Shown here: positions 33,282-57,673 of the stretch, piece after piece
Position numbering within the stretch: position 1 is the stretch's first letter
Layout: each line of letters starts with the position of its first letter
Origin: Candidatus Omnitrophota bacterium
GTDB lineage: Bacteria; Omnitrophota; Gorgyraeia; VGKN01
Reading direction: 5' to 3'
Assembly (NCBI GenBank): GCA_043800345.1
Contig: JAZDNB010000022.1
Location: forward strand, 1-57,673
Length of the DNA: 57,673 bases
The notes under the pieces: generated by a model
Databases searched by the model: none
The model's input: only the letters and a program-made list of their open reading frames with translations
What the model was told of the DNA's origin: nothing
Made by a program: the position numbers and the translations under genes

Positions 33282-33324
33282 TTTATACACCCCCTACATA
33301 ATTATTATTAATGTGACGTGTATG

Positions 33325-34377: not shown

Positions 34378-34389
34378 CACACCCTCCGA

Positions 34390-34893: not shown

Positions 34894-34924
34894 AATACGC
34901 CCCCTTTATTTTATGTACGGCTGA

Positions 34925-35800
34925 TTATTTTATTCTCACACCCGCTGTCTTTGTAAGTTTGCGAAACTCTTTCATAAAAAAATTCGTGATCGTACCGGGT
35001 TTTCCGTTACCGATACTCCTGGCATCCACCTTCACCACGGGGATTATCTCTGCCGCAGTCCCGGTAAGAAACACCTCATCGGCATTGTAAATACTGTGCC
35101 GTGTCAACACTTCTTCCATGACGGATATTTTTTTCTTCTTAGCTATTTCAATTACGGCACCCCTCGTGATTCCTTTTAAAATCCCCACATACGCGGGCGG
35201 GGTTAACAGCACGCCTTTTTTTACAATAAACACGTTGTCTCCTGTACCCTCGGTAACATAGCCGAGAGAATTCAGCATGAGCGCTTCTTCCACATTTGAA
35301 TTGATTGCCTCAATCTTTGCGAGAATATTGTTCAGATAGTTCAAAGATTTTATCTGCGGATTAAGCGCCTCGGGCATGTTCCTGAGCGTCGGCACAGTTT
35401 TAATCTCAAGGCCATTTTTATAATACTCCTGGGGATAGAGGGCTACCTTGTCGGTTATGATAACAACCGTCGGTCTTTTGCACTTTCTGGGGTCTAAACC
35501 CAGGTCCCCCTTTCCCCTCGTAATCACAAGTCTTATATACGCATCCTTAAGGCCGTTTATTTTTAAAGTCAAAATAACCGCCCGTATCATCTCCTCTTTG
35601 GTAAGCGGGACTGATAACATGAGCGCATGGGCGGATTCATATAACCTGTCAATATGCTCCTGTAATTTGAATACAAGGCCGTTGTATGAACGTATTCCTT
35701 CAAACACGCCGTCGCCGTAGAGAAAACCGTGGTCAAAAACCGAGACCATTGCTTCATCTTTATCAATCAAATTCCCGTCAATATACACCTTAAAGCCCAT
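34925..35800 (-). CDS. ilvE: Branched-chain amino acid aminotransferase
   Basis: LYGDGVFEGIR, KSLNY, EGTGDNVF, GITR, TGTAAE. Confidence 0.93.
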   Translation of the reverse strand: MGFKVYIDGNLIDKDEAMVSVFDHGFLYGDGVFEGIRSYNGLVFKLQEHIDRLYESAHALMLSVPLTKEEMIRAVILTLKINGLKDAYIRLVITRGKGDLGLDPRKCKRPTVVIITDKVALYPQEYYKNGLEIKTVPTLRNMPEALNPQIKSLNYLNNILAKIEAINSNVEEALMLNSLGYVTEGTGDNVFIVKKGVLLTPPAYVGILKGITRGAVIEIAKKKKISVMEEVLTRHSIYNADEVFLTGTAAEIIPVVKVDARSIGNGKPGTITNFFMKEFRKLTKTAGVRIK

Positions 35801-35812
35801 ATGAACTCCTTT

Positions 35813-36481
35813 TTATTCTAAAAATTTTCCGTCCCTTATGTGTAAAACCCTGTGAGCAAATTGTGCGATCGATTCCTCATGGGTAACAATAACAAACGTC
35901 TGCATCTTTGTCTTATTCAGTTTTATAATTAAGTCTAGTACATCGCGCGACGTCTCCGAATCAAGATTCCCGGTCGGTTCATCGCAGAACACAATTTCGG
36001 GCTCGTTCATAAGGGCCCGTGCGATCGCAACGCGCTGCTGCTCTCCCCCGGAAAGCTCACTCGGCCTGTGATACAGCCTTTTTTCCAGGCCTATTTCCTT
36101 AAGCAATCCTGTTGCCCGGTTCCTTAGTATGCTTCTTTGCGCCCAGCTAGTTACAAGACCCGGCAGCATCACATTCTCAAGAGCGTTAAACTCCTCAAGA
36201 AGGTGGTAGAATTGAAATATAAACCCTATCGTCTTATTCCGAAGACGCGACCTTTCATCTTCGGATAATGTAAAGATATCTTTGCCGTTAATAGTAACTG
36301 CTCCCTTGGTTGGCTTATCAAGCCCCGCCAGAAGGTGAAGGAGCGTTGATTTACCGGCACCCGAAGGCCCGAATATAGAAAGAATCTCCCCCTTCGCCAC
36401 GGTAAGGGTCACGCCCTTTAATACGTGCAATTCCCTGATGCCGCTATTATAAACTTTATGCAGATTCTCGGCTGTCAACAT
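35813..36481 (-). CDS. lolD: Lipoprotein-releasing ABC ATPase
   Basis: [32 protein letters not shown]; adjacent to lolC/E. Confidence 0.88.
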
Positions 36482-36495
36482 ATTTGATTTTTCTA

Positions 36496-37677
36496 TTATT
36501 CATACCGCAGTGCTTCTACCGGATTAAGCCTGGACGCCTGATATGCCGGATACAGCGTTGAAAAAAAACTTATCAATATCGACGCCACTATAATCAGAAC
36601 AGAATCCCTTATCTCGACATTCACGGGCAACTTATCGATATAGTAAATATCCGGAGGCAACTTTATAAACTGATACGTCTTTAACAGATATGACAGGAAA
36701 AAACCTCCACACGCACCAAGTGCGGTTCCTATCAGGCCTATAATAAGCCCTTGAAGAGAAAATATCTTCATAATACTGCCGTTTGTAAGCCCTATCGCTT
36801 TCAGTATGCCGATATCACGCGTTTTTTCCATTACCACCATTATTAACGTACTTATAATATTAAAACAGGCCACTATGACGATAAGCGTCAGGATAATAAA
36901 CATAACGGTTTTCTCAAGCTTGAGCGCACTAAAAAGGTTCTTATTTACATCCATCCATGTAAGCACCCAGTATTCGTATCCCAGAAGTTTCTGCAAACTT
37001 TCTTTTATAACCTCCGCTTTATATAAATCATCAATCTTAACACCCACGCCGCTTACCAGCTCGCCCACCCCTAAAAATTCCTGGGCATCCTCCAGGGTAA
37101 TAAATACCAGACCCGCGTCATATTCGTACATCCCGGAATTAAATATACCTGCCACCTTAAAGGTCCTTGTCTTTCCGTCAAAAGGCGAGATAAGCGGGAT
37201 GCCGGTGCCTAACTGTGCGTTTATTTTAAACGCAAGTTCCCTTCCCAGGACAATACCGCCTTTTTCAATCTGATACGTTCCCTCTTTTATATATGAGGCG
37301 AGTTTCGTTACGTGTATTTCTTTATCGGGTACTATGCCCCTTAAGGAGACTACATACACCTTATCCCTATATTTTAAGAAACCTTGTCCGTTTAAAAACG
37401 GGGCGCTCGATACCACGTGTTCGGTATCTTTTATTTTCTCCATGACCGCATATGCCGCCGGAAGCCCGCCTTCTTTTTGAATGAGGATATGAGAGTTTGT
37501 CTGCACAATCTTATCTCTCAGGTCATTATCAAAACCGCTCATCACGGCAAGCACTATAATGAGCGCCATAACGCCCACTGCCACCCCTAGTATGGAAATC
37601 AAACTTATTATCGAGATAAATTTTTCTTTGCGTTTTGCGGCAAGATACCTCAGCGATATAAAAAGTTCTTTTCTCAT
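36496..37677 (-). CDS. Lipoprotein-releasing ABC permease (LolC/E/F family)
   Basis: RYL...FISIIS, AVMSGF, FNSGMYEYD, NLFSALKLEK, YPAYQAS..P.EALRYE. Confidence 0.92.
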   Translation of the reverse strand: MRKELFISLRYLAAKRKEKFISIISLISILGVAVGVMALIIVLAVMSGFDNDLRDKIVQTNSHILIQKEGGLPAAYAVMEKIKDTEHVVSSAPFLNGQGFLKYRDKVYVVSLRGIVPDKEIHVTKLASYIKEGTYQIEKGGIVLGRELAFKINAQLGTGIPLISPFDGKTRTFKVAGIFNSGMYEYDAGLVFITLEDAQEFLGVGELVSGVGVKIDDLYKAEVIKESLQKLLGYEYWVLTWMDVNKNLFSALKLEKTVMFIILTLIVIVACFNIISTLIMVVMEKTRDIGILKAIGLTNGSIMKIFSLQGLIIGLIGTALGACGGFFLSYLLKTYQFIKLPPDIYYIDKLPVNVEIRDSVLIIVASILISFFSTLYPAYQASRLNPVEALRYE

Positions 37678-37681
37678 ATAG

Positions 37682-39136
37682 TTATTGTTGTGGTTTCAGT
37701 TGCGGAAATAAAATTACGTCGCGTATCGAATCTGAACCGGTGAGTACCATGACAAGCCTGTCAATACCGATCCCCAAACCGCCTGCGGGGGGCATTCCGT
37801 ATTCAAGTGCTTCAACAAAATCATAATCTACCTGTTTGATATCATCTTTTTCTGCTTCTCTAAGTTGTTCTTCAAAACGCCTTTTTTGCTCAATAGGGTC
37901 ATTCTGCTCCGTATAGGCGTTCGCCACTTCAAGGTCTCCTATATACAGCTCAAACCTGTCGGACAGGAGAGGGTTATCTTTTTTTACCTTGGCAAGCGGG
38001 CAGAACTCGCTAAACAGGTCAACAAAGAAGGCAGGCTTATTTTCTTTCTCATTTTCAAGCAAGTCTTCTATAATCTTTGAAAGTTTTGAACGCGTAATCT
38101 TTTCTGCCTTATCAAGTTCCACCTTCACGTTCGCTACTTTAAGTTTATTAAGCCACTCCTCTGTTGAATTTCCCGGTTCGATACCATAGAGCGTTTTCAT
38201 CTTCTCGGCAAACGAAACTATCCGCCAGGGCGGGCTAAAATCAAACTCCCTGCCGTTTAGCTGTACCGCGGTTGAACCGTTTATTTCTTTTATAAGATAT
38301 ACCAGCATCTCTTCGGTAAGTTTCATCATGTCCGAGCAATCCGCATATGCCCAATATGCCTCGAGCATCGTAAACTCAGGGTTATGCTTTGTAGAAATAC
38401 CTTCGTTCCTGAAGCTCTTGTTAATCTCATACACCTTTTCAAGTCCGCCCACAAGTAACCGTTTTAAATATAGCTCCGGCGCTATGCGAAGATAAAGGTC
38501 TACGTCGTATTCATTATGATGTGTCTTAAACGGTTTTCCTGCCGCACCTCCGGGAATCGCATGCAGCATCGGCGTCTCTACTTCAATAAAACCTTTTTTC
38601 TCTAAGAAGCTTCGTACTAAACTGATAATCCTGGTCCTTGCCAATAATACCTTTTTAGAATCTTCGTTTGCAATAAGGTCAAGATATCGTTGCCTGTACC
38701 TCGTCTCTACATCCTTTAAGCCGTGCCATTTTTCCGGCAGGTTTCTTAAACTTTTTGACAGCACAATAAACTCATCCACCTTCACGGTGGGTTCGCCTGT
38801 CCTTGTCTTAAAAACCTCTCCGGTAACGCCAAGTATGTCCCCGATATCAAGACTGTTAAATATCTCGAAATTCTTCTCGCCTATCAGATCTAACTTTATA
38901 TATGCCTGTATACGACCCGTCTCATCTTTTAAGTCAAAAAATACGCTTTTTCCGTGGCTTCTTACCGCAGTCATCCTCCCGGCAATACTTACCTTAATGC
39001 CTTCCTGGAAAGAGACCACAATATCAGCTATCCTGTGGGTCTTTTCAAACCGCCTGCCAAAAGGCTCAACCCCAAGCAATTTCAGCTTGTTGAGCTTGGC
39101 TAATCTGTCGTTAAAAATCGTATTTTCTTCGCTCAT
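37682..39136 (-). CDS. lysS: Lysyl-tRNA synthetase, class II
   Basis: LPEKWHGL, RYRQRYLDL, EVETP, LRIAPEL, FRNEG, HNPEF, GMPPAGGLGIGIDRL; likely start ATG 39136. Confidence 0.97.
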   Translation of the reverse strand: MSEENTIFNDRLAKLNKLKLLGVEPFGRRFEKTHRIADIVVSFQEGIKVSIAGRMTAVRSHGKSVFFDLKDETGRIQAYIKLDLIGEKNFEIFNSLDIGDILGVTGEVFKTRTGEPTVKVDEFIVLSKSLRNLPEKWHGLKDVETRYRQRYLDLIANEDSKKVLLARTRIISLVRSFLEKKGFIEVETPMLHAIPGGAAGKPFKTHHNEYDVDLYLRIAPELYLKRLLVGGLEKVYEINKSFRNEGISTKHNPEFTMLEAYWAYADCSDMMKLTEEMLVYLIKEINGSTAVQLNGREFDFSPPWRIVSFAEKMKTLYGIEPGNSTEEWLNKLKVANVKVELDKAEKITRSKLSKIIEDLLENEKENKPAFFVDLFSEFCPLAKVKKDNPLLSDRFELYIGDLEVANAYTEQNDPIEQKRRFEEQLREAEKDDIKQVDYDFVEALEYGMPPAGGLGIGIDRLVMVLTGSDSIRDVILFPQLKPQQ

Positions 39137-44980: not shown

Positions 44981-47900
44981 CTACAATGTCCTGTCATATG
45001 GTACGCGTGTCTGCAATACTTCTTTGGTTATAGCCTGGGTTACAACGCCGGTCAATCTAAAAAGATCGCCGTCATCGAGCTTTCCGTGGCTTGCCTTTTC
45101 TATACACAGTTTCATGATAATATCCATCATCTCTTTGGATGTCGGCGTTTTCTCAAAATACATAAACTTATTATACCCTTTTACTTCGCGTGCGCCCTCT
45201 CCTATACCGATAAACACAATATCTATACCGAGCTCTGCTTCCAATGCTTTTAATTGTTTCCGTAACTCGCTAAACGATACCCCGGAGGTTTCGCCTCCGT
45301 CAGTGAATATTATTTCTAATTTATTCGGCTTATCTTTTCGCGTCGCATATTTTCGGCGTATGCCGTTCATGACCGAGACAGTATTAATACCGCCTCTGTC
45401 CGGTACATGCCAGAGATTGCCAAGTCCCTTCTCTACACTATCTTTATTCCGGCAGTCGGGAAAATCAAGAAGCAAATGGTGCTTATCTCCTATCGCGCCC
45501 AGCGAAAATTCCATATCCCTATTTATCGAAGCGGCAAGGTAAAATAATGACGTATAAAAATCCGACATTTGCGTAAAACTATTTTTTAACGGGGAATTAC
45601 CCAGTACGCTTCCGCTTATATCAACGGTAATACCGCAACTGAGCATTCCTTCGCGCTTAAGCCTTTTTACCTGGATAAAAGGCTCAAGCGAACCCATAAT
45701 CTTGAGGATAATATCTATTTCTTCTCCCGATTCGGCAGGCGTCCTCACTATCTGCTCGGGGGCGGCGAATATGTTAAGAAAATCCCTCACCAAGTGAGGA
45801 GAGATAGTCAAGAGTTCTTTTATCTTGTCTGCCAGGCCGCCCTCGGCGTCCGTATAAAAATCATCCTCAATCTCCGTATCCCGCTTTTTTTCCTCGTCTT
45901 CTTCTATGATGCCTTCATCGGGATTTTTATCCTGTTCTGTCATCTCAATTTCTTCATCAACGTCCTCTTCGTCTATGATATCAAATTCGGGAGATTCTTC
46001 TAAATCACCCTGGATTTCCTCTATCTGAAGCCCTCCTTTTCCGTGCGCAAGTTTAATCCTATATTTTCCCGCTTCTACGGTAGAGAGGTATTTCTCCGGT
46101 TCCTCAAAGAAAGTTCGTGCCGCATCCCGTATATCATTCTGCTTCATATAATGCTTTATACCTTCGAATATCCTCGTTACGTCAGATACGTCAAAGTTTT
46201 CATCAAAGTTAGAAATCATATAGTATCTATATGACGAGTTATAATGTTCGTCCATATAAATGGCGAATCCGTTAAGGATTGCCTTTGCGGCCTGACAGTA
46301 ATAATCCTTTCTCGCTCTTTCGAGCCCCCCGATTGCAACAACATTTCTTATTCTTTGTACAAGATCATATTCTATATATTTTAGTGCATCTGATGAAAAT
46401 AATAACGGGAATAGGGTCGAATAAAGCTCTATGTTCCTTTTTAAGCTTCTTCTCTTTATTACATTCTGGAACAGGTGGCCTAGTTCATGGAAGGCGGTCC
46501 AGTCTATTGCTTCCTGCTCGCTAACATGCGCTAGAAGCGCTTCCTCTGCCGACGGTTTTTCAAGGGCAATAGCAAATTCCCCTTCAAAATAACCAAGGAT
46601 AGAGCCCTGGCTAGAATCAACTACAAGCACCTGTGGTTCATTGCCAAGCACCTTCCATTCGTCCCAATTTTTCTTCTCTAGCGAACCTTGTTGAAGAAGA
46701 GAATCAAGACCATCCGGGGCCTTTAATCTCTGCGTTATTTTGCCTTTTACCGTAATCATTATATATGGTTTTTTGTTTATAATCAGACACTTCATGCTGC
46801 AGAAATAATTTCCCTTCGCTATAGTTCTTCTTAGGGAAAGCACTATTCGCCTAAGGGCACTCATCTTAATAATTTTTTCTTTGTAAAGCGCCGTCAGTTG
46901 CTCAACCTCTGTGCGTATACCGAGCTTTTTGGCAATATCAAGAAGCCGGTCTACATTAATACCTTCCGTGTCACGATGGGTTAGAGCAAATAAGAACGGC
47001 TGAAGGATTTTCTCAATAAAGTAAGGCATTTGGGCGTCGGGCTGCTCTTTAGCATATTCGGAAATAGCATTATTTATGGCATTTTTATCGTACGATATGA
47101 CTACTTTTTGCTTGACGCTACGGCGAGGTTTTTTAGGTGTTGTTTTTTCGCCTTCGGGTTCCACCTCTATAATGTCGTCAATTATTTCATCCTGCGAAAC
47201 CAATTCGGGCATATCGGCTGAAATATCTCTTATTTTGTCCGGTTCCGTTTTTATTTCCCTCACCCCGCTCGGCACGACAAAAGAAACCTGTTTCACCTGG
47301 CCAGATAATTCCTTCTTTACCTTGTCTATTCCCCTTCTGTGTATTTCCTTAAGAATATTAAAACGGTCTGTCCTGTTGTATTTCAAAGGATCGGGCATCC
47401 ACAGCTTGATTGCGTTAAAACTTAACTCATTCGCTATTGAATACCTCCCTGCATATTTTTCGGCGGGATTAAACGTCAACACCACCAAAACGTCCGAATC
47501 AAGTTCTACTTCAAATACCTCTCCCGCAAAATATACGCTGAATTTCCTTTCCCCTCTGAAGAGCGGCATAAGCGCAAAGAGGACATCGGGATTGGCATTT
47601 GCTTCATCCAGAAGCAATATCTTACGGTTTGCGTCCTGTTTCTGCGGCAGATGCACTCTTTTACCGTTTATTGTTCCGCACCGCGCCAGAAACTCTTTTA
47701 TCCCCACTTTAAACTTACCTTCCTCAAGGCGCAACTCCGCAGTTATATCCGAAACGCGGATATCTTCATAGGCATTCAATTGATAGAAGGGAATTCCCCA
47801 GATATCGGATATGCTATGCAGAAGGGTTGTCTTTCCTGTCCCGCTTTCTCCGTTTAAAAGCACAACCCGGGGATTAATAATTCTTCCGCTTGGCTCCTGT

Positions 47901-50900
47901 ATTCTTAAAAATGCCTTAATGAGCGCACTCATAAGTTGCCGTATGGTGTTGGTATATTCGATATAGCTCCTGCTTGTGGTTTCATGCGGCGGAAGGGAAT
48001 ATGCCTTTGCGCTCGTATCCCTGGGGATATCCTGCCCTCCTATCGAACTTAGTAAACGGCAGACAACAACAAGGTATTTTCCGTCAAGCAGTTTAACGCC
48101 CATGGTAGGAGAAAGCATTTTAAGCTTCCCGTCTTTTATATCCTGCGTTTTAAAACTATAGATATTACCCGGCGTCTGAATAATAATTTCTCCCTCTACC
48201 TTGATAACCGTTATGCCGTTATCGAGCACGATACCGCGGTTTATTTCTTCGGCATCCACACGGATACGGGGATGCTCAAACTCTTCAAAACTGATTGTGG
48301 TCAAACCGACGGTAATTTCATCCTTCAGCGCCTGATATATCTTGTCAGTGTCGGCATCTGACACCTGATTGTCTCTAAAAATAAACCTTTTTAGCCAATG
48401 GTCCTTCATAAGTTCCTGTTCAAACTTCACCTTGTCGGACTCTTCGAGAGCAGCCAGATAAAATAACATGAATGCCTTTAAGCAATAATAGAGAGGGTTT
48501 GGATGAAACGATTTTTTATCTACATCTTTCTGTTTTTCGCGTTGTATAAGTGCAGCGATTTCGAATATATCTTTTATCGAGAAACCGTAACGTATGTTAA
48601 AAACGCCGCTTCTATCAAATTGATACATCTTGACTGCTATGGCCCTGATCCAGAGCAGTTCTTTTTTAGTCACATTGGGATATCTGCTTTTTATTATATC
48701 CCTCAGTTCGGAAAGATCCTTCAGCGAACGGACTGCAATACGGCTGAAGCGGTTTATGAAAGGCGAGGAAAATTTATGCTCAAGCGGAGCCGATACCACA
48801 ATATGCGCCCATTCGGGAAGCACATATACAACTCTTTCCCCTTTTTCGTCGATAAGGGCAATGTTGCGCTCCGCAAGTAATCTATGCAACATGACTCGCT
48901 GTCTTTCCGGTATGGTATCCATATAACTAAAGAATAGAATCTTGTTGGCATGAGTACCTTCTCTTCTGGCTCTCTCCAGTTCATCTTCTCTTACGAGATG
49001 CATTGCCAGGAAACCAAGCGCCATCTTAAGACCTTCTGAAATTTTTTCTGTCTTAACCCCGTAGTCATCCATCTCATCAAACAAAGGAAGAAGACTTTCT
49101 AATAAATGCATACGCGTCATTTCATAGTGACAATCCGATGCATAGAGCTCCCACTCACTCATCAGAGAAAAACGTTTTACAAGGTCCGCTACATCCGCTC
49201 CGTCTTCCTCAAGCAAGGCTACGGGCCTTCCAAGGGATAAGGCGAGGGCAAAATCTCTTAAGGCCTTATTGGTAGAACCCACGTCAAGACCCGAAGAATA
49301 GCGCAGGTCATCATGGCGCGGTACAAGATCGGCATTGCCGTTTCCTGCAGAAAGCACAATACCTCCAAAATCTATTGTCCCATTAGTCCTGGTAACCTTC
49401 AGTGTCCCCCGCCACTCTTTTAGCCTCTCTTTGAGCTCGCCCGAGAGACTGTCTCCGTCAAAGATCTCTTCGATCATAGCCCACAAATTATTGAATTCGT
49501 TTTCTGATACCACCGTAGAAAGATAGTTAATCATTATGCCCTGGAACAGGGCCCTTGAAAGATCCTGTTCTTTGAGCGGTTTTTCCAGTTCTTTCTTAAG
49601 TAGCTGGGTAAAAGCGATTAACTGACGCGGACTTAATTCGTCTCTTGCCGGATGCTCATACAAAAATTTTCTATGCAGCCGGGCGATTTTATATTTTAAC
49701 TCCATGGGTAATTGCGGGACATCTTTTAAGTAATACTCAAGAATCCTTATACAATCTTCTTCGCTCAAGCGGTTATCAACCCATATCTTCATTGCTTGAC
49801 TATCTATGGTATATGGTATGCTGGATCTGCCCTTTGTCGCGTTGGACGGATTCTGGGTTATGGCAAGATGGAAATTTGGGTCTCTGGGTAGCCGAAGCTT
49901 AAGCCCCGGATGAAAATGCCCAAGATAAAGTTCCTCTAGCTGCGACACGCTTTGTAACAATGACAATAGCTCCTGGGAGTTTTTGCCCATTGCCCCTTCG
50001 TCTGCGTTATAGATTCCCCCGGTTGCAGCTTCGGGATTGCGATAATAGGCATTAAGAAAATCTATGAGAAATCTGCCCTGGGAATCTTTTTCTGCTGCGG
50101 TGAGAATCACCTTTTTCCCCTGTATCGTAAGTCTTCCCACCGCCTCGCCGATATCTATATCTTCATACATCAAACCATTATAATTCGGAAGTTTTATCCT
50201 CTGTGACAGGTCTTCTATGGAAGAAGTTTTTCCTCCTCCCTGATACCCTTCCAGAATAATGCTGCGATTATGTTTTAACGCGATAAGCATACTTGCATAG
50301 CGCCTTACCGATTCTTCCGTGGGGGCGAGAAATTTATCCTTGATAACTTCCACGTCCTCTAAATCCTTAAACCCCGTCTTAAACCATAGCAGTTCATTAA
50401 CCACGAGATATACAGAACCGTCACTGCCAACTTCATATCGCAGGGCATTTTTTGGGTCGGTGATGAAGGGTGCTTCTACTACGTCGCTAACGGTACTTTT
50501 AAGCTTTTCCGGCATATCGCGATGACATCTGATTCCGCCTAAATACTCGGGTATAAGTCCTATGGCGAGAGTGTAATAACCGATTTCTTTTATGAGCGAA
50601 AGAGGGTCCTTTTGAGGATATTTCTTTAAGGCCTCCCCCAATTCCGACAAGAAGGTATCAAGGTCGCTTCTGCTTATGCGAAGATGTTTATAAATAGAAT
50701 CCTCTTCTTCGGTCTTATAAAGCCAGTAGACGCTAAGGGCATAATCAATAATAGTTCTTTTGGTGTCGGCAGGAAGTGCTTTCATGTGGACGTTAAGGTG
50801 TTTACGGACATACTGCTCAACCCAGTCGCTGGTTATCGTTTCAGAGATATTTACGGGGCTAAACCTGTCAACTTCTGCAGGGCTTAAATTCGGCTTTTCC

Positions 50901-53900
50901 CCTGAACTGTCAAATGCTATAAACCTTAGGTTTTCAGGAAGCGTGGAATAAAACCACTGGGTCAATAACATTTTTTCTTCGTCGGTTAATTTTTCAAGAT
51001 CGCTAGAAAGTTTTGCTCTAGCGGTCCTGTTATATTGCTGTATGCTATCTTGAAATAATTTCTGATTTTGGCTAAAAACCATGACCAATTCTTGCACTCG
51101 TGATTCGGTCAGTACACCGTTTAAATCCAGTATACCGGTCTGGAAAAATTCATTCAAAAGAGGCGCTACCTTGGGGTTTAAGTGCATATAATTATACAAA
51201 AATGCCACATAAGGGGTATCGGGATGAAGGCGCGCGGTATATATTAATTCGGGTATTATACCTACGCCCATTTCAAACTCTATTTTCATCGTAGCCTGCA
51301 ACTGCCGTAATCGCTCATCAGCAGGCAATTCTTCTGCCTCCGACTCCTTGGTAACCAACCCTCCCACAAGCTGTCTCTTATTATGAAAATAACTTAAACT
51401 GATGGGTATTATCGTGGGACTGCCGAGCGTTTTCTTTATATCATCCTCTGTCTCTTGCTGATAATTCGCGCCGTTGGTAAATACGAAAAGAGCTCTTTTG
51501 CTTACAAGCAGCTTTCGCCTGAGCACATCGATAGGGCTTGGCGACGAAACGAAATATTTATAATTCTTTCCGGTAATGGTACGCGCTGTTTCTATATCAC
51601 CAATATTATGCCATACAAATATATAGTTATCTTCAAGCGCATGGCTAAGCGCCTCTTCTACGGTACTGCCTTCGTTAAGATATACAAAGAATGCCTCTAC
51701 GGTACGGACAAGCGCCCTTTTAGTAATATCCTGGCCTGAGACAAAAACGTCTTCGCGCACCGCACTTCTGAAGGCATTGTGAATAGAGGATAAACTATCA
51801 ACGAGCTGATCTAGCACACCGACATCAACTGTCTTGGCTGATTCTTTATTACCTTTAGCAAGGAGGTCTCTACATACTTTCGGGATTTCTTCGGAAGGAA
51901 TTTGCATATAGAAACGGACTAGATTGGCAGCAATGGAACGGGGGAGCGGTTCTCTTCCCTGGAACGTATCGGGATTAACGGTAAATAACCACAGGTTATT
52001 CTGGTCTATCGGAAGCGTCCTGAAGAGTTCGGCTGTTTCGGTATCCTGAAGAGGAAATTCGGGAAGATATTTCATGGGACGAGCCATAATTTCAGGATAT
52101 AACCAGTAATACAGTCCCTGACAGGTATTAATCTCATCCATAAGATGGAGATTTCCGGGGGTCTTTGCCGATGTCAGATAGCGCGGCTTAGAAATATAAT
52201 ACCTTCCGTACACATCGGGCGTTATCTGTCCGACAAACTGGGAAAGGTTTGTGTCTTCGTTTACCGTATAATGATTAAGGTTGTATCCGATTATCTTTGC
52301 AAAGGCCTTTCCTATTTCGGTTTTCCCCTCTCCGGACGGACCTTCCAGCTGAATCGCCACATGCCTGTAGCGTAATGTCCTGGCAAGCTGCGCAAAAATC
52401 CAACATTCGGTATCCGATATAATAAATCCTGTGAAGGCGAATATTAATTCTTCCGGGCTTAAGGAAGGATGCTGCGCTATAAAATCCCTAAAATCTCCGG
52501 AGATATCCAGCGCTACGTCCCCAAAATATATTTTACCTTCCTTTACCGTTATGGCAGGCGGTTTTGGCAGCGCCACAGTTGTGTATATACATTTTGCCAG
52601 CGATTCTTTTGATTTTTTGGTCATGACCTTCAGAGACAGATATCCGTATGTTTCTCTTTTAATCACTTCTTCTTCCGGACACTGTAAATCCTGCGCAACT
52701 CCGTAAATTGCTTTTGCTATCTGGACAATATCAAAAAAGAGCGTTCCGGATACATCAGCACTCTTTGTTTTCTTAAGCTGTCCATAGATATCAAGGAGTG
52801 TTTCTGCCGTCTCTTCGGAAACGTTGGTTTCTGCCTTTAGATATTTCATCATATCGGTATAAGAAGGATCCGGCACATACTGACGTATAGGCCTATCCAT
52901 AAAAGATGAATCCTTTATTTCGGAATCTTTGTGCATAGTAAAGACAATATGGACGTTGGCAGGCAAACTTATACTTATACCAAGCTCGGGTACTTCTACA
53001 ACGTTTTCAAGCAGCACCGGATTGAACTGGACCCTTACTCTGTCAGGCATGCCTTCTACATTCTCAAATAACAGGAAAAATTGTTCTCCTCTTTTCTTAA
53101 TCGCTTCATCCCGCACCAGCTTTAATATGCCGTCATACCACTTCATTTCTTTTTCCCAGTCATCGCCGTAGCGCAAGGCACAGCTTACCGCTGCTCGCAA
53201 TACGCTATCGGAAGAAAATTCCGAGCCCCAGCGCTTGAAATATTCCTCGATAAGGTTTGCGTCATGTCCCAGGCGAAGTACTCTGTCGAGCGCCTGTTTT
53301 ATATCATCATCCGTTGCCTTTCCTAATAAATACCGTATCTCATCTTCCCGGGGTATGCTCAGCGGAAGGTACATCCCGAAGAAATGCCTGCGTGCGGTAA
53401 ACTGGCTCATGGGAAGGCGCAGTAGATTCCTACCCGGCCTCATCAGGGCCTCCATTGCCTTATCTACCACATCAAGCGAGCTATCGGAAGTAAAGAGGAT
53501 AAGCGGTTTTTGTGCCTGCGCTGCCCTTTCAATCTTGGCTCTTGTTGCGCGTACTATCTTGATTTCATCTTCGTTTACCTGGCTCGATAAATCTTCGTAT
53601 GTTCCGTACCGTATAAGATTTTCGATAACCTTCCTGAGATTTGCAGACCGCAAAAGAGGTGAATCTACGGCTGCGATTTTGAGAAAATCATGGTATGTGC
53701 GGATATTTTTTTCAAGGATATCAACGAACATCTGGAGGGTATCCTCATCGGTAATGAGGAAACCGTAGATATTGGCTGCGGTAACGATAAAATACTCAAG
53801 TACGTTTTCAAGACTCCCCTTCTGCAGATAGAAACGGCTGAAGTCGATATTGAATTCTTTGAGTTCCCTGAAGGTAAATGCAAACTTCGGATTGCCGGCA

Positions 53901-56900
53901 TACTTTTTCTTTGCCATCTCAAGGAGCTCGTCATTTAAATCAATACTGAGATTGATGATCGTATCTTGGTCAGTATCGGAAAGTTTTTCTTCGGCGCGCC
54001 TTACTTCCTTTAAAATAAAGCGGTTGATGACCGCTTTAAACGGACCTTCTGCGTTATTATTAATAATGTCATTGAACTCTCCGTATGAAAGCCCTACTAC
54101 TACTTCCTTAAGCTCTTTTCTTAATTTCAGATATAGATACATTGCATAAGGTTCTTCGTGAAAATTTACCATGGTGACTTCTCTGAAAAGTTCATCGATA
54201 GGAGTCATCTCCGCCTTAGGGTCCACCATGGACTTCGGCACCAATAATTTTATTACCTTCTCTTCGGATAGATCGCTCAACTGTAATACATCTGCCGCGC
54301 GGTCTATAAAGTTAACCATGCTTATCTCATTGGGTCTCATGCCTTTCTTTTTAATATCAGCAGCGATACCATTAAAAAACGACTTAATAAGATGGTCGCT
54401 GTTTGCATTAACCAGTATTTGTAACGCCTCGTTTAGATAAGGAAGGTCTGCCTGTATAATCCAATCATTCTGTATCAGATTTTCAAATATTTTATATATG
54501 CTATCCGCCGTAGCAGGAGGTGGCATTGCGTTGATTTTTTTGCAAATTGCCGTTATCTGTTCAAAATTAGCGCCTGCAATTATCCCCTTTGACACCATGG
54601 CAACCATAAGCTTCCAAGGAATGTCGCTACTCAGTACCTCGGCAAGAATCTGTTGCAGGGTAGCGGGAATACCGGACAGCGCAGCAATTAATACGGCAAG
54701 TTCTCCGGCAGTAAGTTTTTGCCTCAATGTTGTATCCCGGCTCATTGCCTGGATAATAACCTTCATAATCGCAATTTGGATTGATGCGGATACGGTAGGA
54801 CCAAGTTTGGCACGGGCTTCGAGTAATACACTCAGATGTTCGCTCGTTAAGGTAAGTTTACTATTATTATTAAGCGCCCCGTGGATTGCCTCGGCAATCC
54901 ACTCTTTTACCTTAGGAGGTGCGCTCTTAAAAAATCCAATTATAGGATTGATAAGGGATTCGTTTAATACATATGCCCTTGTTAACGCTGCAATAAACTT
55001 ATCTTTATGAGAAATAATCCCGGGAATTTCAAACCGGGCGAAAAACACATCGGTAAGTTCCGTATTGTATGCCATTGCAGCTCCTGTTGCCAAAGTTAAG
55101 AAGTCGTGTGTTTCTTTTAATACTTTCTGAGGTTTGCTCATACCAATGTACTGAGCAGTATCCCGTTCCAGCAATGCCAACAGAAACTCAAACCGCTCTT
55201 TCGACACCATAAAACCTTTTGTATTTTCCAATGCCTTTAAAATAGCAAAAACACACTCCCTTTCAGTAAGAGGAGAATCGGCATGCTCTATCGCTTTCCA
55301 TAATATATCAAATTGTTCGGCAGTTATGCTAAGTGCGGGATTATTTTTTAATACAAGACCAACCGAAGCGACAGCAGCCTGAAGCGTAGCGGCTGAAGAA
55401 GTTTCCATAACCTGCATAAGCAGCGCAAGACTGGAGGAGTCCAACATAAGTTTCGTGTTCTTCTGTAGGACATCTTGTAAAAATAGGAGAAGTTCCTCCT
55501 TTAAATCTCCCTCAATGAACGGCAGAATTCTACAAAGGGTATTACACATATCTTGATTAAGATTTCTCTGTTCCTTCAGATAATTGGCAACAACCCAGCA
55601 AAGTAACTTTTTAATGTCATCTGAAGCGCTGCGTTCAATATGCTGGACTAAAAGTGCAACAAGATCCCCGTTATTAAGAATGGTCTTTGATAAGAGTATT
55701 GCAGAAGTAGCCTGTTGCGTTGAAGAAAGCTCGGGAAGCGCTCTGATGATAACCTCGGCATGCCGTTCGGTTGGTTTTAAGGCCCGATTCTGGGTTAATA
55801 CGTTTTCGATAATTACTTCTACCTGGACATTGTGTTCATAGTGTTTATCAGTCCCTTCTCCTGTCTCGGTGTATAAGAGAGGATACAACACGTCAAGATG
55901 GGAGGCGGTAAATGTTTCAAAAAGTGCCTTGTTATTATCGGAGGAGAAAACTTTCAGAGAATCATTTATAATATCACATATAACCAGTCTCATCTCTGGG
56001 GAAGCGATTATAAGTGCATCAACCATACTATCGAGCAATTCCGGGTACATCTGCAGGGCCAGTCGGAACATCCCACCCATTGATTCTCTATAAGGGCTTT
56101 TTGACTGCTCATAATATATAAGAAGTGGCTTAAGAAGATCGGGGTTATTGCTAACTGCTATTGACCCTATGACGCCGAACCATTCTTCGAGAAGGGAAAA
56201 ATCAACCTTGCTCAAGCTTTCAAAATATGTAAAAAATTCATTGAGTTGCTGCGGTTTATTGGCAATTGAAAGAGCAATTACCTCCGATAAGGAATCTAAC
56301 ATATCAACCTCTTCTACTATCGTTTTACCTTTCTTCCCCAATTCGGAAAGCGCCGATAGAAGAAGTGTCAGATTTCCCGACGAGAGGGCCAGAGCTGCAT
56401 TATGTTGCAAGAATGCGCTGATGGTATCTACAATGTACCCTCTGATATAAAAATCGGATGTATCTCTGAAGACATCTAAGAGCATATCGAGCTGTTCGGG
56501 GGTAGTTTTAATACCCGGATTTTTATGCAATATTCCGGCAATGATAAGGGCAAGCGAGCGCTCATGTTCGTCCTTTGCCCCTCTAAACCGGTCAAAGATA
56601 AGCAAAAATTCTTCATTGCTTAAGGGCACATCCGAAAACGCCTTTGCAATCCAATTCAGAAGATCCTTATCGGTAACGGCAAGGAAATAATCAAGCAGTG
56701 GTTCAATAAGCGTCTTATCGAGGGTCAGGGCATTATTTATAATAGAAGCCGCATATTGTTTTGCTGCATCGGAGGATTTTGCAACAACGTCAAGTAGCAC
56801 GTTAAGATATTCTTTTTCTTTAGATATAACCGTACCTGAAACTGCCGAGAGGAATATTTTTGTCTTTTCGTCCGATGAAGGGTCTTCCAGATAACGAACT

Positions 56901-57673
56901 ATATTACCAATAAGCCCATTATTGTTATGGAGGGCCGTTGAAAGCATATATACTGCCGGTGATCCCGCAGGCACTTGAATAACTGTCTGAAATGTATAGT
57001 CCTTTGGAGGTTGCGGTTTAGATGAAATCATGTCCTCAAATTCTATGATGCTTATGGAGTTATCTCCATAGTTAGTAACAAAAAGCTTACCCTCTACAAG
57101 GGCAATGCCTAATGGACTTATTAAGCCAAGGCCTGCATCCTTTTCAAATCTGTGGAGTTCTTTTCCTGTAGCGGGGTCTATGACGCTCATGGAGTGGTTA
57201 TTATGGTTAGTAATAAAAAGTTTGCCATTTGCGAAGGTGATGCCTGCCGGTCCGGCTAAGCCAAGGCCTGTACCCAATCCGAATCTATCGAGCTCTTTTC
57301 CCGTAGCGGGATCTATGACGCTGAGAGAGTGGTCATCATAGTTAGTAACAAAAAGTTTGCCATCTGCGAAGGTGATGCCTGCCGGTCTTTTTAAGTCAAG
57401 ACCTGTACCCAGTCCGAATCTATCGAGCTCTTTTCCCGTAGCGGGGTCTATGACGCTGAGAGAGTGGTCATCATAGTTAGTAACAAAAAGTTTGCCATCT
57501 GCGAAGGTAATGCCTGCCGGTCCTTTTAAGTCAAGACCTGTGTCTTTGCCGAATCTGCGGAGCTCTTTTCCCGTAGCGGGGTCTATGAGGATGATGGAGT
57601 CATCCAAAGAATTAGTGACAGCAAGGATGCCTTCGAAAATGATAATTCCGTCAGGGTCATTTAAATCAAGGCC
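44981..57673 (-). CDS. Giant (>=4230 aa, 5'-truncated) midasin-like protein: NHL repeats, helical solenoid, six AAA+ modules, HExxH, acidic tract, VWA/MIDAS
   Basis: Frame stays open past the track start (TTG 57607) to the window edge (GLDLNDPDGIIIFEGILAVTNSL). Walker A GPSGEGKT, GYQGGGKT, GESGTGKT; Walker B LMDE, NADE, LLDE; three further degenerate AAA-like modules; HELGH; VDISGS...TDG...IVFIGIG. Confidence 0.85.
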   Translation of the reverse strand, partial: GLDLNDPDGIIIFEGILAVTNSLDDSIILIDPATGKELRRFGKDTGLDLKGPAGITFADGKLFVTNYDDHSLSVIDPATGKELDRFGLGTGLDLKRPAGITFADGKLFVTNYDDHSLSVIDPATGKELDRFGLGTGLGLAGPAGITFANGKLFITNHNNHSMSVIDPATGKELHRFEKDAGLGLISPLGIALVEGKLFVTNYGDNSISIIEFEDMISSKPQPPKDYTFQTVIQVPAGSPAVYMLSTALHNNNGLIGNIVRYLEDPSSDEKTKIFLSAVSGTVISKEKEYLNVLLDVVAKSSDAAKQYAASIINNALTLDKTLIEPLLDYFLAVTDKDLLNWIAKAFSDVPLSNEEFLLIFDRFRGAKDEHERSLALIIAGILHKNPGIKTTPEQLDMLLDVFRDTSDFYIRGYIVDTISAFLQHNAALALSSGNLTLLLSALSELGKKGKTIVEEVDMLDSLSEVIALSIANKPQQLNEFFTYFESLSKVDFSLLEEWFGVIGSIAVSNNPDLLKPLLIYYEQSKSPYRESMGGMFRLALQMYPELLDSMVDALIIASPEMRLVICDIINDSLKVFSSDNNKALFETFTASHLDVLYPLLYTETGEGTDKHYEHNVQVEVIIENVLTQNRALKPTERHAEVIIRALPELSSTQQATSAILLSKTILNNGDLVALLVQHIERSASDDIKKLLCWVVANYLKEQRNLNQDMCNTLCRILPFIEGDLKEELLLFLQDVLQKNTKLMLDSSSLALLMQVMETSSAATLQAAVASVGLVLKNNPALSITAEQFDILWKAIEHADSPLTERECVFAILKALENTKGFMVSKERFEFLLALLERDTAQYIGMSKPQKVLKETHDFLTLATGAAMAYNTELTDVFFARFEIPGIISHKDKFIAALTRAYVLNESLINPIIGFFKSAPPKVKEWIAEAIHGALNNNSKLTLTSEHLSVLLEARAKLGPTVSASIQIAIMKVIIQAMSRDTTLRQKLTAGELAVLIAALSGIPATLQQILAEVLSSDIPWKLMVAMVSKGIIAGANFEQITAICKKINAMPPPATADSIYKIFENLIQNDWIIQADLPYLNEALQILVNANSDHLIKSFFNGIAADIKKKGMRPNEISMVNFIDRAADVLQLSDLSEEKVIKLLVPKSMVDPKAEMTPIDELFREVTMVNFHEEPYAMYLYLKLRKELKEVVVGLSYGEFNDIINNNAEGPFKAVINRFILKEVRRAEEKLSDTDQDTIINLSIDLNDELLEMAKKKYAGNPKFAFTFRELKEFNIDFSRFYLQKGSLENVLEYFIVTAANIYGFLITDEDTLQMFVDILEKNIRTYHDFLKIAAVDSPLLRSANLRKVIENLIRYGTYEDLSSQVNEDEIKIVRATRAKIERAAQAQKPLILFTSDSSLDVVDKAMEALMRPGRNLLRLPMSQFTARRHFFGMYLPLSIPREDEIRYLLGKATDDDIKQALDRVLRLGHDANLIEEYFKRWGSEFSSDSVLRAAVSCALRYGDDWEKEMKWYDGILKLVRDEAIKKRGEQFFLLFENVEGMPDRVRVQFNPVLLENVVEVPELGISISLPANVHIVFTMHKDSEIKDSSFMDRPIRQYVPDPSYTDMMKYLKAETNVSEETAETLLDIYGQLKKTKSADVSGTLFFDIVQIAKAIYGVAQDLQCPEEEVIKRETYGYLSLKVMTKKSKESLAKCIYTTVALPKPPAITVKEGKIYFGDVALDISGDFRDFIAQHPSLSPEELIFAFTGFIISDTECWIFAQLARTLRYRHVAIQLEGPSGEGKTEIGKAFAKIIGYNLNHYTVNEDTNLSQFVGQITPDVYGRYYISKPRYLTSAKTPGNLHLMDEINTCQGLYYWLYPEIMARPMKYLPEFPLQDTETAELFRTLPIDQNNLWLFTVNPDTFQGREPLPRSIAANLVRFYMQIPSEEIPKVCRDLLAKGNKESAKTVDVGVLDQLVDSLSSIHNAFRSAVREDVFVSGQDITKRALVRTVEAFFVYLNEGSTVEEALSHALEDNYIFVWHNIGDIETARTITGKNYKYFVSSPSPIDVLRRKLLVSKRALFVFTNGANYQQETEDDIKKTLGSPTIIPISLSYFHNKRQLVGGLVTKESEAEELPADERLRQLQATMKIEFEMGVGIIPELIYTARLHPDTPYVAFLYNYMHLNPKVAPLLNEFFQTGILDLNGVLTESRVQELVMVFSQNQKLFQDSIQQYNRTARAKLSSDLEKLTDEEKMLLTQWFYSTLPENLRFIAFDSSGEKPNLSPAEVDRFSPVNISETITSDWVEQYVRKHLNVHMKALPADTKRTIIDYALSVYWLYKTEEEDSIYKHLRISRSDLDTFLSELGEALKKYPQKDPLSLIKEIGYYTLAIGLIPEYLGGIRCHRDMPEKLKSTVSDVVEAPFITDPKNALRYEVGSDGSVYLVVNELLWFKTGFKDLEDVEVIKDKFLAPTEESVRRYASMLIALKHNRSIILEGYQGGGKTSSIEDLSQRIKLPNYNGLMYEDIDIGEAVGRLTIQGKKVILTAAEKDSQGRFLIDFLNAYYRNPEAATGGIYNADEGAMGKNSQELLSLLQSVSQLEELYLGHFHPGLKLRLPRDPNFHLAITQNPSNATKGRSSIPYTIDSQAMKIWVDNRLSEEDCIRILEYYLKDVPQLPMELKYKIARLHRKFLYEHPARDELSPRQLIAFTQLLKKELEKPLKEQDLSRALFQGIMINYLSTVVSENEFNNLWAMIEEIFDGDSLSGELKERLKEWRGTLKVTRTNGTIDFGGIVLSAGNGNADLVPRHDDLRYSSGLDVGSTNKALRDFALALSLGRPVALLEEDGADVADLVKRFSLMSEWELYASDCHYEMTRMHLLESLLPLFDEMDDYGVKTEKISEGLKMALGFLAMHLVREDELERARREGTHANKILFFSYMDTIPERQRVMLHRLLAERNIALIDEKGERVVYVLPEWAHIVVSAPLEHKFSSPFINRFSRIAVRSLKDLSELRDIIKSRYPNVTKKELLWIRAIAVKMYQFDRSGVFNIRYGFSIKDIFEIAALIQREKQKDVDKKSFHPNPLYYCLKAFMLFYLAALEESDKVKFEQELMKDHWLKRFIFRDNQVSDADTDKIYQALKDEITVGLTTISFEEFEHPRIRVDAEEINRGIVLDNGITVIKVEGEIIIQTPGNIYSFKTQDIKDGKLKMLSPTMGVKLLDGKYLVVVCRLLSSIGGQDIPRDTSAKAYSLPPHETTSRSYIEYTNTIRQLMSALIKAFLRIQEPSGRIINPRVVLLNGESGTGKTTLLHSISDIWGIPFYQLNAYEDIRVSDITAELRLEEGKFKVGIKEFLARCGTINGKRVHLPQKQDANRKILLLDEANANPDVLFALMPLFRGERKFSVYFAGEVFEVELDSDVLVVLTFNPAEKYAGRYSIANELSFNAIKLWMPDPLKYNRTDRFNILKEIHRRGIDKVKKELSGQVKQVSFVVPSGVREIKTEPDKIRDISADMPELVSQDEIIDDIIEVEPEGEKTTPKKPRRSVKQKVVISYDKNAINNAISEYAKEQPDAQMPYFIEKILQPFLFALTHRDTEGINVDRLLDIAKKLGIRTEVEQLTALYKEKIIKMSALRRIVLSLRRTIAKGNYFCSMKCLIINKKPYIMITVKGKITQRLKAPDGLDSLLQQGSLEKKNWDEWKVLGNEPQVLVVDSSQGSILGYFEGEFAIALEKPSAEEALLAHVSEQEAIDWTAFHELGHLFQNVIKRRSLKRNIELYSTLFPLLFSSDALKYIEYDLVQRIRNVVAIGGLERARKDYYCQAAKAILNGFAIYMDEHYNSSYRYYMISNFDENFDVSDVTRIFEGIKHYMKQNDIRDAARTFFEEPEKYLSTVEAGKYRIKLAHGKGGLQIEEIQGDLEESPEFDIIDEEDVDEEIEMTEQDKNPDEGIIEEDEEKKRDTEIEDDFYTDAEGGLADKIKELLTISPHLVRDFLNIFAAPEQIVRTPAESGEEIDIILKIMGSLEPFIQVKRLKREGMLSCGITVDISGSVLGNSPLKNSFTQMSDFYTSLFYLAASINRDMEFSLGAIGDKHHLLLDFPDCRNKDSVEKGLGNLWHVPDRGGINTVSVMNGIRRKYATRKDKPNKLEIIFTDGGETSGVSFSELRKQLKALEAELGIDIVFIGIGEGAREVKGYNKFMYFEKTPTSKEMMDIIMKLCIEKASHGKLDDGDLFRLTGVVTQAITKEVLQTRVPYDRTL
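57035..57673 (-). repeat. 135-bp (45-aa) intragenic tandem repeat, NHL/YVTN-type propeller blades, at least 4.7 copies
   Basis: Unit GLDLKGPAGITFADGKLFVTNYDDHSLSVIDPATGKELDRFGLGT; units at 57539-57673, 57404-57538, 57269-57403, 57134-57268 plus a partial unit. Confidence 0.92.

Follow-up and report, generated by a model that had tools for sequence, protein, structure and literature searches.

We describe here a giant gene from a Candidatus Omnitrophota bacterium (GTDB lineage Bacteria; Omnitrophota; Gorgyraeia; VGKN01), found in a stretch of 57,673 nucleotides (assembly GCA_043800345.1, contig JAZDNB010000022.1) that we call the window. By profile and motif comparison, its product carries six AAA_5-type modules (dynein/midasin/MoxR clade) in tandem, arranged as three dead-live pairs, and ATP binding is predicted to be possible in only three of the six (M2, M4 and M6). 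The same chain holds beta-propellers, a long Leu/Ala-rich region, a domain with an HExxH motif, an acidic tract and a C-terminal VWA domain with a metal ion-dependent adhesion site (MIDAS). We think it rather probable that this single polypeptide of ~7,400 residues is a self-contained AAA+ remodelling or processing machine, and the sequence suggests that it is most likely tethered to the membrane. An earlier note, made from the letters of the window, had compared the frame to eukaryotic midasin (Rea1/Mdn1).

The window is an entire contig (C31) of a metagenome bin of 0.97 Mb in 37 contigs, with 62% completeness. At one end of it, a single stop-free frame runs for 4230 codons plus the stop at its 3' end and is open at its 5' end. 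Reverse-complemented, the final 141 bases of the window are identical to the end of another contig, C37, and there the frame is in register with a 3256-codon open reading frame (ORF) that begins at an ATG. Since the contig ends are identical and the C37 ORF is in frame, we take the gene to be ~7439 codons long rather than 4230, the two pieces having 47 residues in common:

44981-57673, minus strand, C-terminal 4230 codons of the giant gene (ORF scan)
G000:C37:40220-49987, plus strand, N-terminal 3209 further codons (contig-end overlap, frame match)

The open frame of at least 4230 codons reported in the earlier note is therefore stop-free and continues onto C37 to ~7439 aa, and retrieval of the upstream sequence, which it had advised, led to an N-terminus with an ATG start and a hydrophobic helix.

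A frame of such length could also be an assembly chimera or a dead gene. The gene comes from a metagenome bin and is broken at a repeat between two contigs. The sole public DNA run that contains it (X1, of low coverage, with 34% of the sampled words) yields short contigs of 220-475 nt scattered along the gene; none of them crosses the end of C31, so that the run is neutral on the C37/C31 join and on expression. However, the frame is uninterrupted over 12.7 kb (C31) plus 9.8 kb (C37), its catalytic motifs are conserved, and collinear homologues exist in 14 other genomes and in ~95 database representatives. Moreover, 14 of the 16 short read contigs that could be aligned are at least 99% identical to the gene. 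The join itself is supported because it completes a second six-bladed propeller matching the first. We give almost no credence to a chimera or a dead gene.

The boundaries of the AAA modules were taken from six conserved blocks in a 19-sequence alignment of the conserved core of the family. Residues are numbered here from the first codon in the window, unless they are said to be counted from the ATG:

52574-53536, minus strand, M1, degenerate AAA module, residues 1380-1700 (hhalign, motifs; invariant Arg in FMDRP)
51539-52441, minus strand, M2, live AAA_5 module, residues 1745-2045 (Pfam AAA_5 30.5 bits, motifs)
50489-51526, minus strand, M3, degenerate AAA module, residues 2050-2395 (hhalign; conserved DRF Arg)
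49424-50341, minus strand, M4, live AAA_5 module, residues 2445-2750 (AAA_7 below cut-off, hhalign, motifs)
48389-49276, minus strand, M5, degenerate AAA module, residues 2800-3095 (hhalign, PDB; invariant NRF Arg)
47972-48388, minus strand, conserved M5-M6 insert of ~140 aa, residues 3096-3234 (core alignment)
47309-47971, minus strand, M6, live AAA_5 module, residues 3235-3455 (Pfam AAA_5 36.8 bits, motifs)

The earlier note had placed the six modules at about 53550-47330, and by profiles they run from 53536 (M1) to 47309 (M6). A motif scan of the window protein finds three P-loops only, at residues 1778, 2476 and 3275. M2 has the Walker A motif GPSGEGKT at 1778, Walker B D1846-E1847, sensor-1 N1900 and GR at 1906-1907. 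The corresponding motifs are GYQGGGKT at 2476, D2558-E2559 and N2608 in M4, and GESGTGKT at 3275, D3356-E3357 and N3402 in M6. Across the 19 aligned family members, the even modules retain the Walker A Lys, the Walker B Glu, the sensor-1 Asn and the GR; the Walker B of M2 is mostly N-E across the family and D-E in the window protein. M1, M3 and M5 lack Walker A and Walker B and, in the same 19 members, retain a near-invariant Arg in (D/N)R(P/F). The residue at this position is Lys in both M4 and M6; in M2 it is Arg in ~70% of members. The odd-module Arg would stand at the position expected for the arginine finger of this clade.

In the whole protein, Pfam AAA_5 (PF07728) scores 70 bits (cut-off 22) over two stretches, 1776-1852 and 3271-3405. 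M4 is matched by AAA_7 only (18.2 bits, below cut-off), with a sub-threshold dynein-type P-loop region at 2447-2498, and residues 210-1700, 2100-2440 and 2800-3230 of the window protein give chance-level Pfam matches only. The P-loop-less modules M1, M3 and M5 are recognised by family profiles only. In the family as a whole, AAA_5 matches 7 of 39 dead modules, and the nearest language-model neighbours in the Atlas of the M5 part of homologue P0045 are AAA_5 or midasin clusters in 10 cases out of 10.

Comparison of the modules with hhalign separates two classes. The odd modules are alike among themselves (M1-M3 97.6%, M1-M5 97.1%, M3-M5 97.9%; E 1e-11 to 1e-13) and so are the even ones, at 98-99% (M2-M4 99.3%, M4-M6 99.1%; E 1e-14 to 1e-20), while cross-class matches are weak: M5-M6 reaches 93%, M1-M4 and M4-M5 ~35% and the others less than 2%. 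For this reason, we read the array as a tripled dead-live pair. The classes are nevertheless related to each other. Merged profiles, built from 39 odd (dead) and 39 even (live) modules, align at 94.3% (E 9.5e-8) over 260 columns, and two single odd modules align with the live profile, M1 at 86.4% (E 4.7e-6) and M5 at 94.5% (E 7.5e-8).

The protein has a sizeable family. Over residues 1700-3560, it shares 34-41% identity with nine database proteins, whose lengths are 2810-6494 aa; the named close relatives appear as 'AAA family ATPase' from Candidatus Omnitrophica/Omnitrophota. Of 400 other Omnitrophota genomes, 14 contain the same segment, all of them members of the same class, and the open frames that hold it have 2232-9099 aa. 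The architecture does recur in other genomes, where the earlier note had proposed to look for it. A profile search of 1.84 billion representatives gave 1776 matches at E<=1e-3 and 404 at E<=1e-30, among which there are ~50 full-length relatives and ~45 more distant giants; after the family come midasin-sized proteins with 8-11 matched stretches, which by their length and by the number of these stretches we take for midasins. The order M1..M6 is kept in the ~95 representatives that score above these midasin-sized matches. Named distant members are from Omnitrophota, Elusimicrobiota and one 'Deltaproteobacteria' metagenome-assembled genome (MAG), or carry the label 'MoxR-like ATPase', a range outside Omnitrophota that rests on source names only. 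Within Omnitrophota, the family has diverged to ~25% identity. Some genomes hold more than one copy. G292 has tandem paralogues on one contig (G292:C5:19007-22030 and 34622-37705, in open frames of 4927 and 4971 aa), G368 carries paralogues on C13 and C11, and one MAG has at least three named members.

Among solved structures (PDB), midasin is clearly the best match for both the live and the dead modules. The M4-M6 profile (A2) matches midasin at E 1.6e-52, the next hit being NorQ at 5e-6; the M1-M3 profile (A1) matches it at E 2.5e-32, followed by Lon at 1.8e-4; and M5 alone matches it at E 1.7e-12. For the merged live profile (A5) we obtained E 1.1e-108 with Rea1, and 73.8 bits with dynein AAA3. 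The merged dead profile (A4) matched Mdn1 at E 2.3e-49, with McrB (7e-4) and CbbQ (0.003) next. Since multi-module E-values sum over modules, per-module scores deserve more weight. On Rea1, the live profile scores 82 bits for AAA3, 79.5 for AAA5 and 73 for AAA4, and on bacterial structures 45.7 bits for MoxR 2r44, 44.5 for CbbQ and 41 for NorQ. With the dead profile, midasin AAA3 and AAA5 score 45 and 42 bits, respectively, in alignments that extend through the whole module and its lid. Per-module hidden Markov models (HMMs) match midasin AAA3/AAA5 best irrespective of the bacterial position; between M4 and midasin AAA5, the score is 48 bits. Against the live-module HMMs, none of the single-module AAA_5 proteins from 40 related genomes exceeds 26.5 bits, and a search among proteins shorter than 2326 aa gave a single match, a fungal midasin fragment. 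As far as these samples show, the ATPase modules appear to group with the dynein-midasin branch and not with typical MoxR. This signal comes from the family profiles only, the single sequence (residues 1700-3560) giving nothing below E 0.3 in PDB. The expectation of AAA_5/MDN1 and VWA matches was borne out for the family, with midasin as the best match of its profiles and Pfam VWA in 11 of 13 members, and in part for the window's own sequence, which shows AAA_5 only in M2 and M6 and a weak VWA_2.

Two trees were built, both from 6 of the 19 core members, 6 midasins (P0017, P0020, P0022, P0025, P0098 and P0100) and 13 single-module ORFs. The first included 12 very-long-branch rows from the distant giants P0057 and P0070, which the second, more careful tree left out. 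In the careful maximum likelihood tree (85 rows x 288 columns), each of M1-M6 and of midasin AAA1-6 forms its own clade. The M1-M6 clades have 95-99 each in the Shimodaira-Hasegawa-like approximate likelihood ratio test (SH-aLRT), and the bacterial odd and even modules form clades with 100/99 and 77/74, respectively. Midasin monophyly (43/85) and the backbone that connects bacterial live modules, single-module proteins and midasin (56/18) are weak, and no sister group is readable. The phylogeny that the earlier note had suggested against midasin AAA1-6 gives, with this weak backbone, no position-by-position orthology. An approximately unbiased (AU) test did not reject a clade of the bacterial odd modules with midasin A1/A3/A5, a group chosen after the tree had been seen (difference in log-likelihood 6.6, p 0.33). 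At this p value, an independent MoxR/VWA expansion and a relative of the midasin ancestor, the two origins that the note had offered, are not separable on these data. Midasin modules also sort partly by parity: AAA3 groups with AAA5 (98/92) and AAA2 with AAA4 (94/93), AAA6 lying beside the latter pair. This parity grouping hints that midasin too may have grown from a two-module unit. A midasin orthologue was considered and rejected, there being no positional orthology, no long linker and apparently no specific similarity in the VWA domain.

It could be argued that a eukaryotic midasin gene was transferred into bacteria, where alternate modules then decayed. Midasins are indeed the best non-family matches in every search, and the Elusimicrobiota and Omnitrophota include some members that live in association with eukaryotes or other cells. 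However, the bacterial modules lie outside the midasin clade, with dead and live modules each in a clade of their own; neither the midasin linker nor its N-terminal domain was detected, and the VWA domain appears not to be midasin-like. The family is also old, judging from the identity of ~25% to which it falls within Omnitrophota. Such a transfer seems highly improbable to us. In the opposite direction, the bacterial family might be the nearest prokaryotic relative of the midasin/dynein ring. A tripled two-module chain with a VWA domain would then have pre-existed in bacteria, and the eukaryotic six-AAA motors would descend from it or share its ancestor. The midasin and dynein scores above those of MoxR, CbbQ and NorQ, the parity grouping in midasin and the AU result are all compatible with this proposal, which we nonetheless hold to be decidedly unlikely. 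If true, it would replace the origin of six-AAA motors from one-module MoxR in early eukaryotes.

The part of the protein that follows M6 contains three features:

46034-47086, minus strand, HExxH domain, presumed zincin-type peptidase, residues 3530-3880 (motif conservation)
45839-46036, minus strand, acidic tract, residues 3880-3945, 66 aa with 47% Asp/Glu (D/E) (composition)
45074-45841, minus strand, VWA domain with MIDAS, residues 3945-4200 (DISGS motif, family conservation)

From M6 to the acidic tract there are ~425 aa, ~350 of which are the HExxH domain. The earlier note had called this part a linker; what lies there is a conserved domain with a near-invariant HExxH. The motif, HELGH, is at residues 3729-3733 (window 46475-46489), and a near-invariant E follows at 3749, 20 residues downstream. 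Among 13 members, H, E and H are conserved in at least 90% and the G is invariant. Among representatives with at least 700 aa after M6, the HExxH domain is present in 24 of 45 and the VWA domain in 40 of 45. In homologues P0009 and P0013, a Transglut_core (papain-fold) domain takes the place of the HExxH domain. This swap for a transglutaminase-type domain suggests a peptidase or processing role there, and no other observation hints as clearly at a processing enzyme between M6 and the acidic tract.

The D/E-rich tract, first estimated at about 46025-45845, was found practically where it had been placed, and the terminal VWA domain has a complete MIDAS motif, as predicted. The motif is D4018-x-S4020-x-S4022 (DISGS, window 45608-45622) together with T4124-D4125. 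Of these residues, D4018, S4020 and D4125 do not vary among the 13 members, while at least 90% of the members keep S4022 and T4124. Pfam VWA matches 11 of the 13, while the window's own sequence gives a weak VWA_2 only (residues 4017-4126, E 0.0015-0.0056, below cut-off). Against PDB, the family C-terminal (VWA) profile finds integrin I domains at E 1.2e-4 but not midasin, and on midasin C-termini it scores at most 6.7 bits. By eye, several of the homologues P0004, P0005, P0006, P0009 and P0012 have in common a C-terminal piece that bears a 'GGIDL' motif; P0007 and some of these same homologues have a conserved N-terminal domain of ~400 aa after a signal-like helix. The window protein has neither of the two.

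On the N-terminal side of the modules, the window holds:

56996-57673, minus strand, blades 2-6 of the second NHL/YVTN beta-propeller plus linker, residues 1-226 (Pfam NHL, PQQ_2, TIGR02276)
54194-56986, minus strand, Leu/Ala-rich repeats, presumed alpha-solenoid, residues 230-1160 (composition)
53537-54196, minus strand, family-conserved pre-ring domain, residues 1160-1379 (kept in 13/13 aligned members)

The propeller repeats recognised by the earlier note match NHL at 37.2 bits (cut-off 20) and TIGR02276 at 74.9 bits (cut-off 27.85), and Pfam PQQ_2 as well. Counted across both contigs, there are 6 + 6 blades of 45 aa each. The first propeller lies wholly on C37, and its six blades lead into the linker IIEFED..KPQPPKDY. 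Of the second, two blades are on C37 and the other four in the window, and an identical linker comes after them. The next ~900 aa, which had been described as Leu/Ala-rich, have 14% L and 9.6% A (residues 230-1160) and no Pfam family. They continue a stretch of ~2200 aa of like kind on C37, ~3,100 aa together. The profile of the pre-ring domain (A8) has no match in PDB. The propellers and the protease-like HExxH domain agree with the recognition and possible protease modules that the earlier note had supposed to be added to the motor.

Only one strongly hydrophobic segment exists in the whole protein of ~7439 aa, the N-terminal helix at residues 10-28 counted from the ATG; homologues P0008, P0011 and P0013 have several each. 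Counted in the same way, the N-terminal part (L006:10220-11900, residues 1-560, without a Pfam family) has a low-complexity stretch rich in Pro, Glu, Ala and Val after the helix, at ~160-330, and a second HExxH motif, HELYH, at 477.

We hypothesize that the six modules would close into one pseudo-hexameric ring with three ATP sites, a closure suggested by homology. To each live site, the dead module that comes next would contribute its conserved Arg: M3 to M2, M5 to M4 and, where the ring closes, M1 to M6. Held by a flexible acidic tether, the MIDAS domain would grip an acidic residue of a client protein; ATP-driven movements of the ring would pull on the client or unfold it, and the client may be cleaved by the neighbouring peptidase-type domain. 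Clients would be selected or scaffolded by the presumed solenoid and the propellers, and the N-terminal helix would anchor the machine to the inner membrane on its cytoplasmic side. By analogy, the protein would most likely be the functional equivalent of a bacterial MoxR + VWA (+ peptidase) system fused in one chain and midasin-like in form. No conserved neighbour gene was found across 14 family loci (38 flanking ORFs, one cross-locus match), and this absence fits a self-contained machine.

Several observations weigh against this proposal. Both the AAA fold of the dead modules and the closure of the ring are deduced from homology. The M1 and M3 profiles, used singly, give no significant match in PDB (E 0.15 and 0.41), and M3 scores 0.9% against the live-module profile; it is counted as an AAA module because of its clear homology to M1 and M5 (transitivity) and because of the merged dead-module profile. 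The HExxH domain matches no Pfam peptidase family (Peptidase_M60 E 0.14), and the acidic tract is not universal, a tract with at least 30% D/E being present in 23 of 50 representatives. Judged by eye, Lys and Arg stand before the N-terminal helix and acidic residues after it, which by the positive-inside rule would leave most of the protein on the outside of the cell, where ATP is lacking. No RNA run containing the gene was among the runs listed, and no evidence of expression was found. Finally, in distant homologues M3/M4 or M4/M5 can be separated by as much as ~3,400 aa of inserted sequence, which would need to loop out of the ring.

That inserts of such size are tolerated could mean that there is no single intramolecular ring at all, the dead-live pairs working as separate two-module units or assembling with modules of other chains, in the manner of two-tier or hetero-oligomeric AAA+ proteins. 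The unit of duplication is the pair, and homology is what the closure has been deduced from, which would suit such an arrangement. However, the number of six modules and the order M1..M6 hold throughout the family and also in its distant relatives, and the Arg that would be required by an adjacent live site has persisted in the dead modules. Besides, the solved single-chain six-AAA_5 proteins that were matched are midasin and dynein, and each of these forms one ring. We consider separate pairs quite improbable and retain the single ring as our working model.

Comparison with known systems helps to place this putative machine. With midasin it shares six AAA_5-type modules, an acidic region and a C-terminal MIDAS/VWA, in this order and in one chain; in these respects the midasin layout claimed by the earlier note was confirmed. 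It failed in the linker, in the three alternating dead modules and, as it appears, in the MIDAS domain, for which no specific likeness to that of midasin was seen. The bacterial protein has three P-loops, in alternate modules; midasin has them in most modules (AAA2-AAA5), and the fungal midasins examined have 4-6 P-loop motifs. The family profiles detected in PDB neither the helical linker of ~1700 aa nor the N-terminal domain of midasin type, and the linker's place is taken by the HExxH domain of ~350 aa. The D/E region of midasin is much longer than the bacterial tract of 66 aa. Conversely, the bacterial protein adds the presumed solenoid of ~3,100 aa, two propellers and the putative membrane helix.

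Dynein and RNF213, both eukaryotic, form a ring of six modules from a single chain, and not all of these modules hydrolyse ATP. Their dead modules are at other positions and do not alternate, and both lack the VWA domain that the bacterial giant has. In Mg-chelatase, BchI is a live AAA+ subunit and BchD combines a dead AAA+ module with an acidic linker and a C-terminal MIDAS/VWA; they are encoded by two genes, form a two-tier complex and belong to the chelatase sub-clade. Neither RNF213 nor BchI/BchD is among the PDB matches listed for the family profiles.

The MoxR-VWA pairs of bacteria (RavA-ViaA, CbbQ-CbbO, NorQ-NorD) likewise join an AAA+ ATPase of the same clade to a MIDAS-bearing VWA protein. 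They differ in having separate genes and a one-module, homohexameric ATPase, whereas the bacterial giant is one chain with six diverged modules. The relevant part of PMC3495828 proposes that the MoxR-vWA-TGL-peptidase (YebA) operon is a membrane-proximal degradation system. The likeness here is a peptidase near the membrane, with two members of our family having a transglutaminase-type domain at that place.

A different purpose has to be considered for the same architecture. The protein could be a fused NTP-dependent conflict system of the MoxR-vWA-propeller kind, a sensor and effector for defence or for predation and host attack. The propellers and the solenoid would then recognise a component of a foreign body or of prey, and the peptidase would be the effector that the ATPase switch releases or activates. 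MoxR, vWA and beta-propeller form a multi-gene theme in the relevant part of Kaur et al. 2020 (PMC7159879), where these ternary conflict systems are described, and all three elements (MoxR-clade ATPase, vWA and propeller) are in the window protein. In the systems of that account, vWA protein and propeller are one fusion and the ATPase is single-module, unlike the six-module chain described here. A conflict role would agree with the patchy distribution (14 of 400 other genomes), with the tandem paralogues in G292 and the several paralogues in one MAG, and with accessory domains that vary, one peptidase type being displaced by another; giant proteins of Omnitrophota have also been linked to predation, as stated in part of a preprint (bioRxiv 10.1101/2023.11.21.568195). 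On the other hand, a PADLOC search with five segments gave no match for four of them, and the best hit, IetA, is at P-loop level only (E 1.6e-5 over 63 residues at the M6 Walker A). The Pfam bpMoxR model has no match in the window protein, Pfam scans found no toxin-type effector domain, and the adjoining genes are housekeeping ones (release factor, SecA, Lnt, LysRS). The conflict system overlaps with the remodelling machine on mechanism and differs from it only in purpose. We keep it as a live alternative, but an unlikely one, and prefer the remodelling or processing machine.

Unusually long genes are already known from this phylum. The Omnitrophota giants described in the corresponding sections of West-Roberts et al. 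2023 (preprint) and Seymour et al. 2023 are longer than 30,000 aa and contain numerous transmembrane helices as well as SecA-DEAD domains. In one of the two papers, the legend of Supplementary Fig. S1 names AAA_5 among the frequent intracellular domains of Omnitrophota giants; the terms midasin, dynein, MoxR, VWA and 'von Willebrand' are absent from the main text of both. We considered an Archaeovorin-type or Dockerin-type giant for the window protein and rejected it; the protein has ~7,439 aa, one hydrophobic segment and no SecA or dockerin match. In related genomes, other very long frames (G270:C8:28724-30220, 23,636 aa; G402:C94:87336-89219, 8,666 aa; G067:C12, 2,731 aa; G041:C2, 3,114 aa) each contain two AAA_5 matches at a short distance from one another, and they may be further multi-AAA giants of other architectures.

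Around the gene, the following ORFs stand on its N-terminal side:

G000:C37:37132-40209 (L006:7132-10209), plus strand, 1025-aa ORF with weak GNAT and HD matches (Pfam)
G000:C37:21592-37119 (L044:1793-17323), plus strand, second giant ORF of 5176 aa, two genes upstream (Pfam)

The 1025-aa ORF ends 10 bases before the ATG of the giant gene, which suggests that the two may form one transcription unit. The 5176-aa ORF has methyltransferase, response-regulator receiver and HATPase_c domains, and ~3,000 aa without a Pfam match. Downstream of the giant gene there are genes for a release factor, SecA, Lnt, LysRS, a Lol-type ABC transporter, ClpC and McsB. In positions 1-44687 of the window, all gene-like ORFs are on the minus strand and the GC skew is negative throughout. 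ClpC (30852-33290) adjoins an ATP:guanido phosphotransferase (33325-34380), the usual McsB-ClpC pairing.

In the relevant part of PMC3495828, the origin of six tandem AAA modules is placed in early eukaryotes, from MoxR, and dynein and midasin are treated as eukaryotic proteins in those of PMC5100056 and PMC3160578. Our full-text searches of the literature, which had supplements outside their scope, so that an earlier mention is possible, gave no description of a bacterial six-AAA single-chain protein. A bacterial chain of six modules with a MIDAS provides a prokaryotic comparison point for the origin of the six-AAA ring, whether it proves to be a parallel invention or a relative. Its strict alternation of dead and live modules is a natural experiment on the number of active sites that such a ring needs. 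The family also offers a compact, all-in-one version of the MoxR-VWA-peptidase idea, open to biochemical study. In Omnitrophota, it gives a first specific and testable reading for one class of their poorly understood giant genes.

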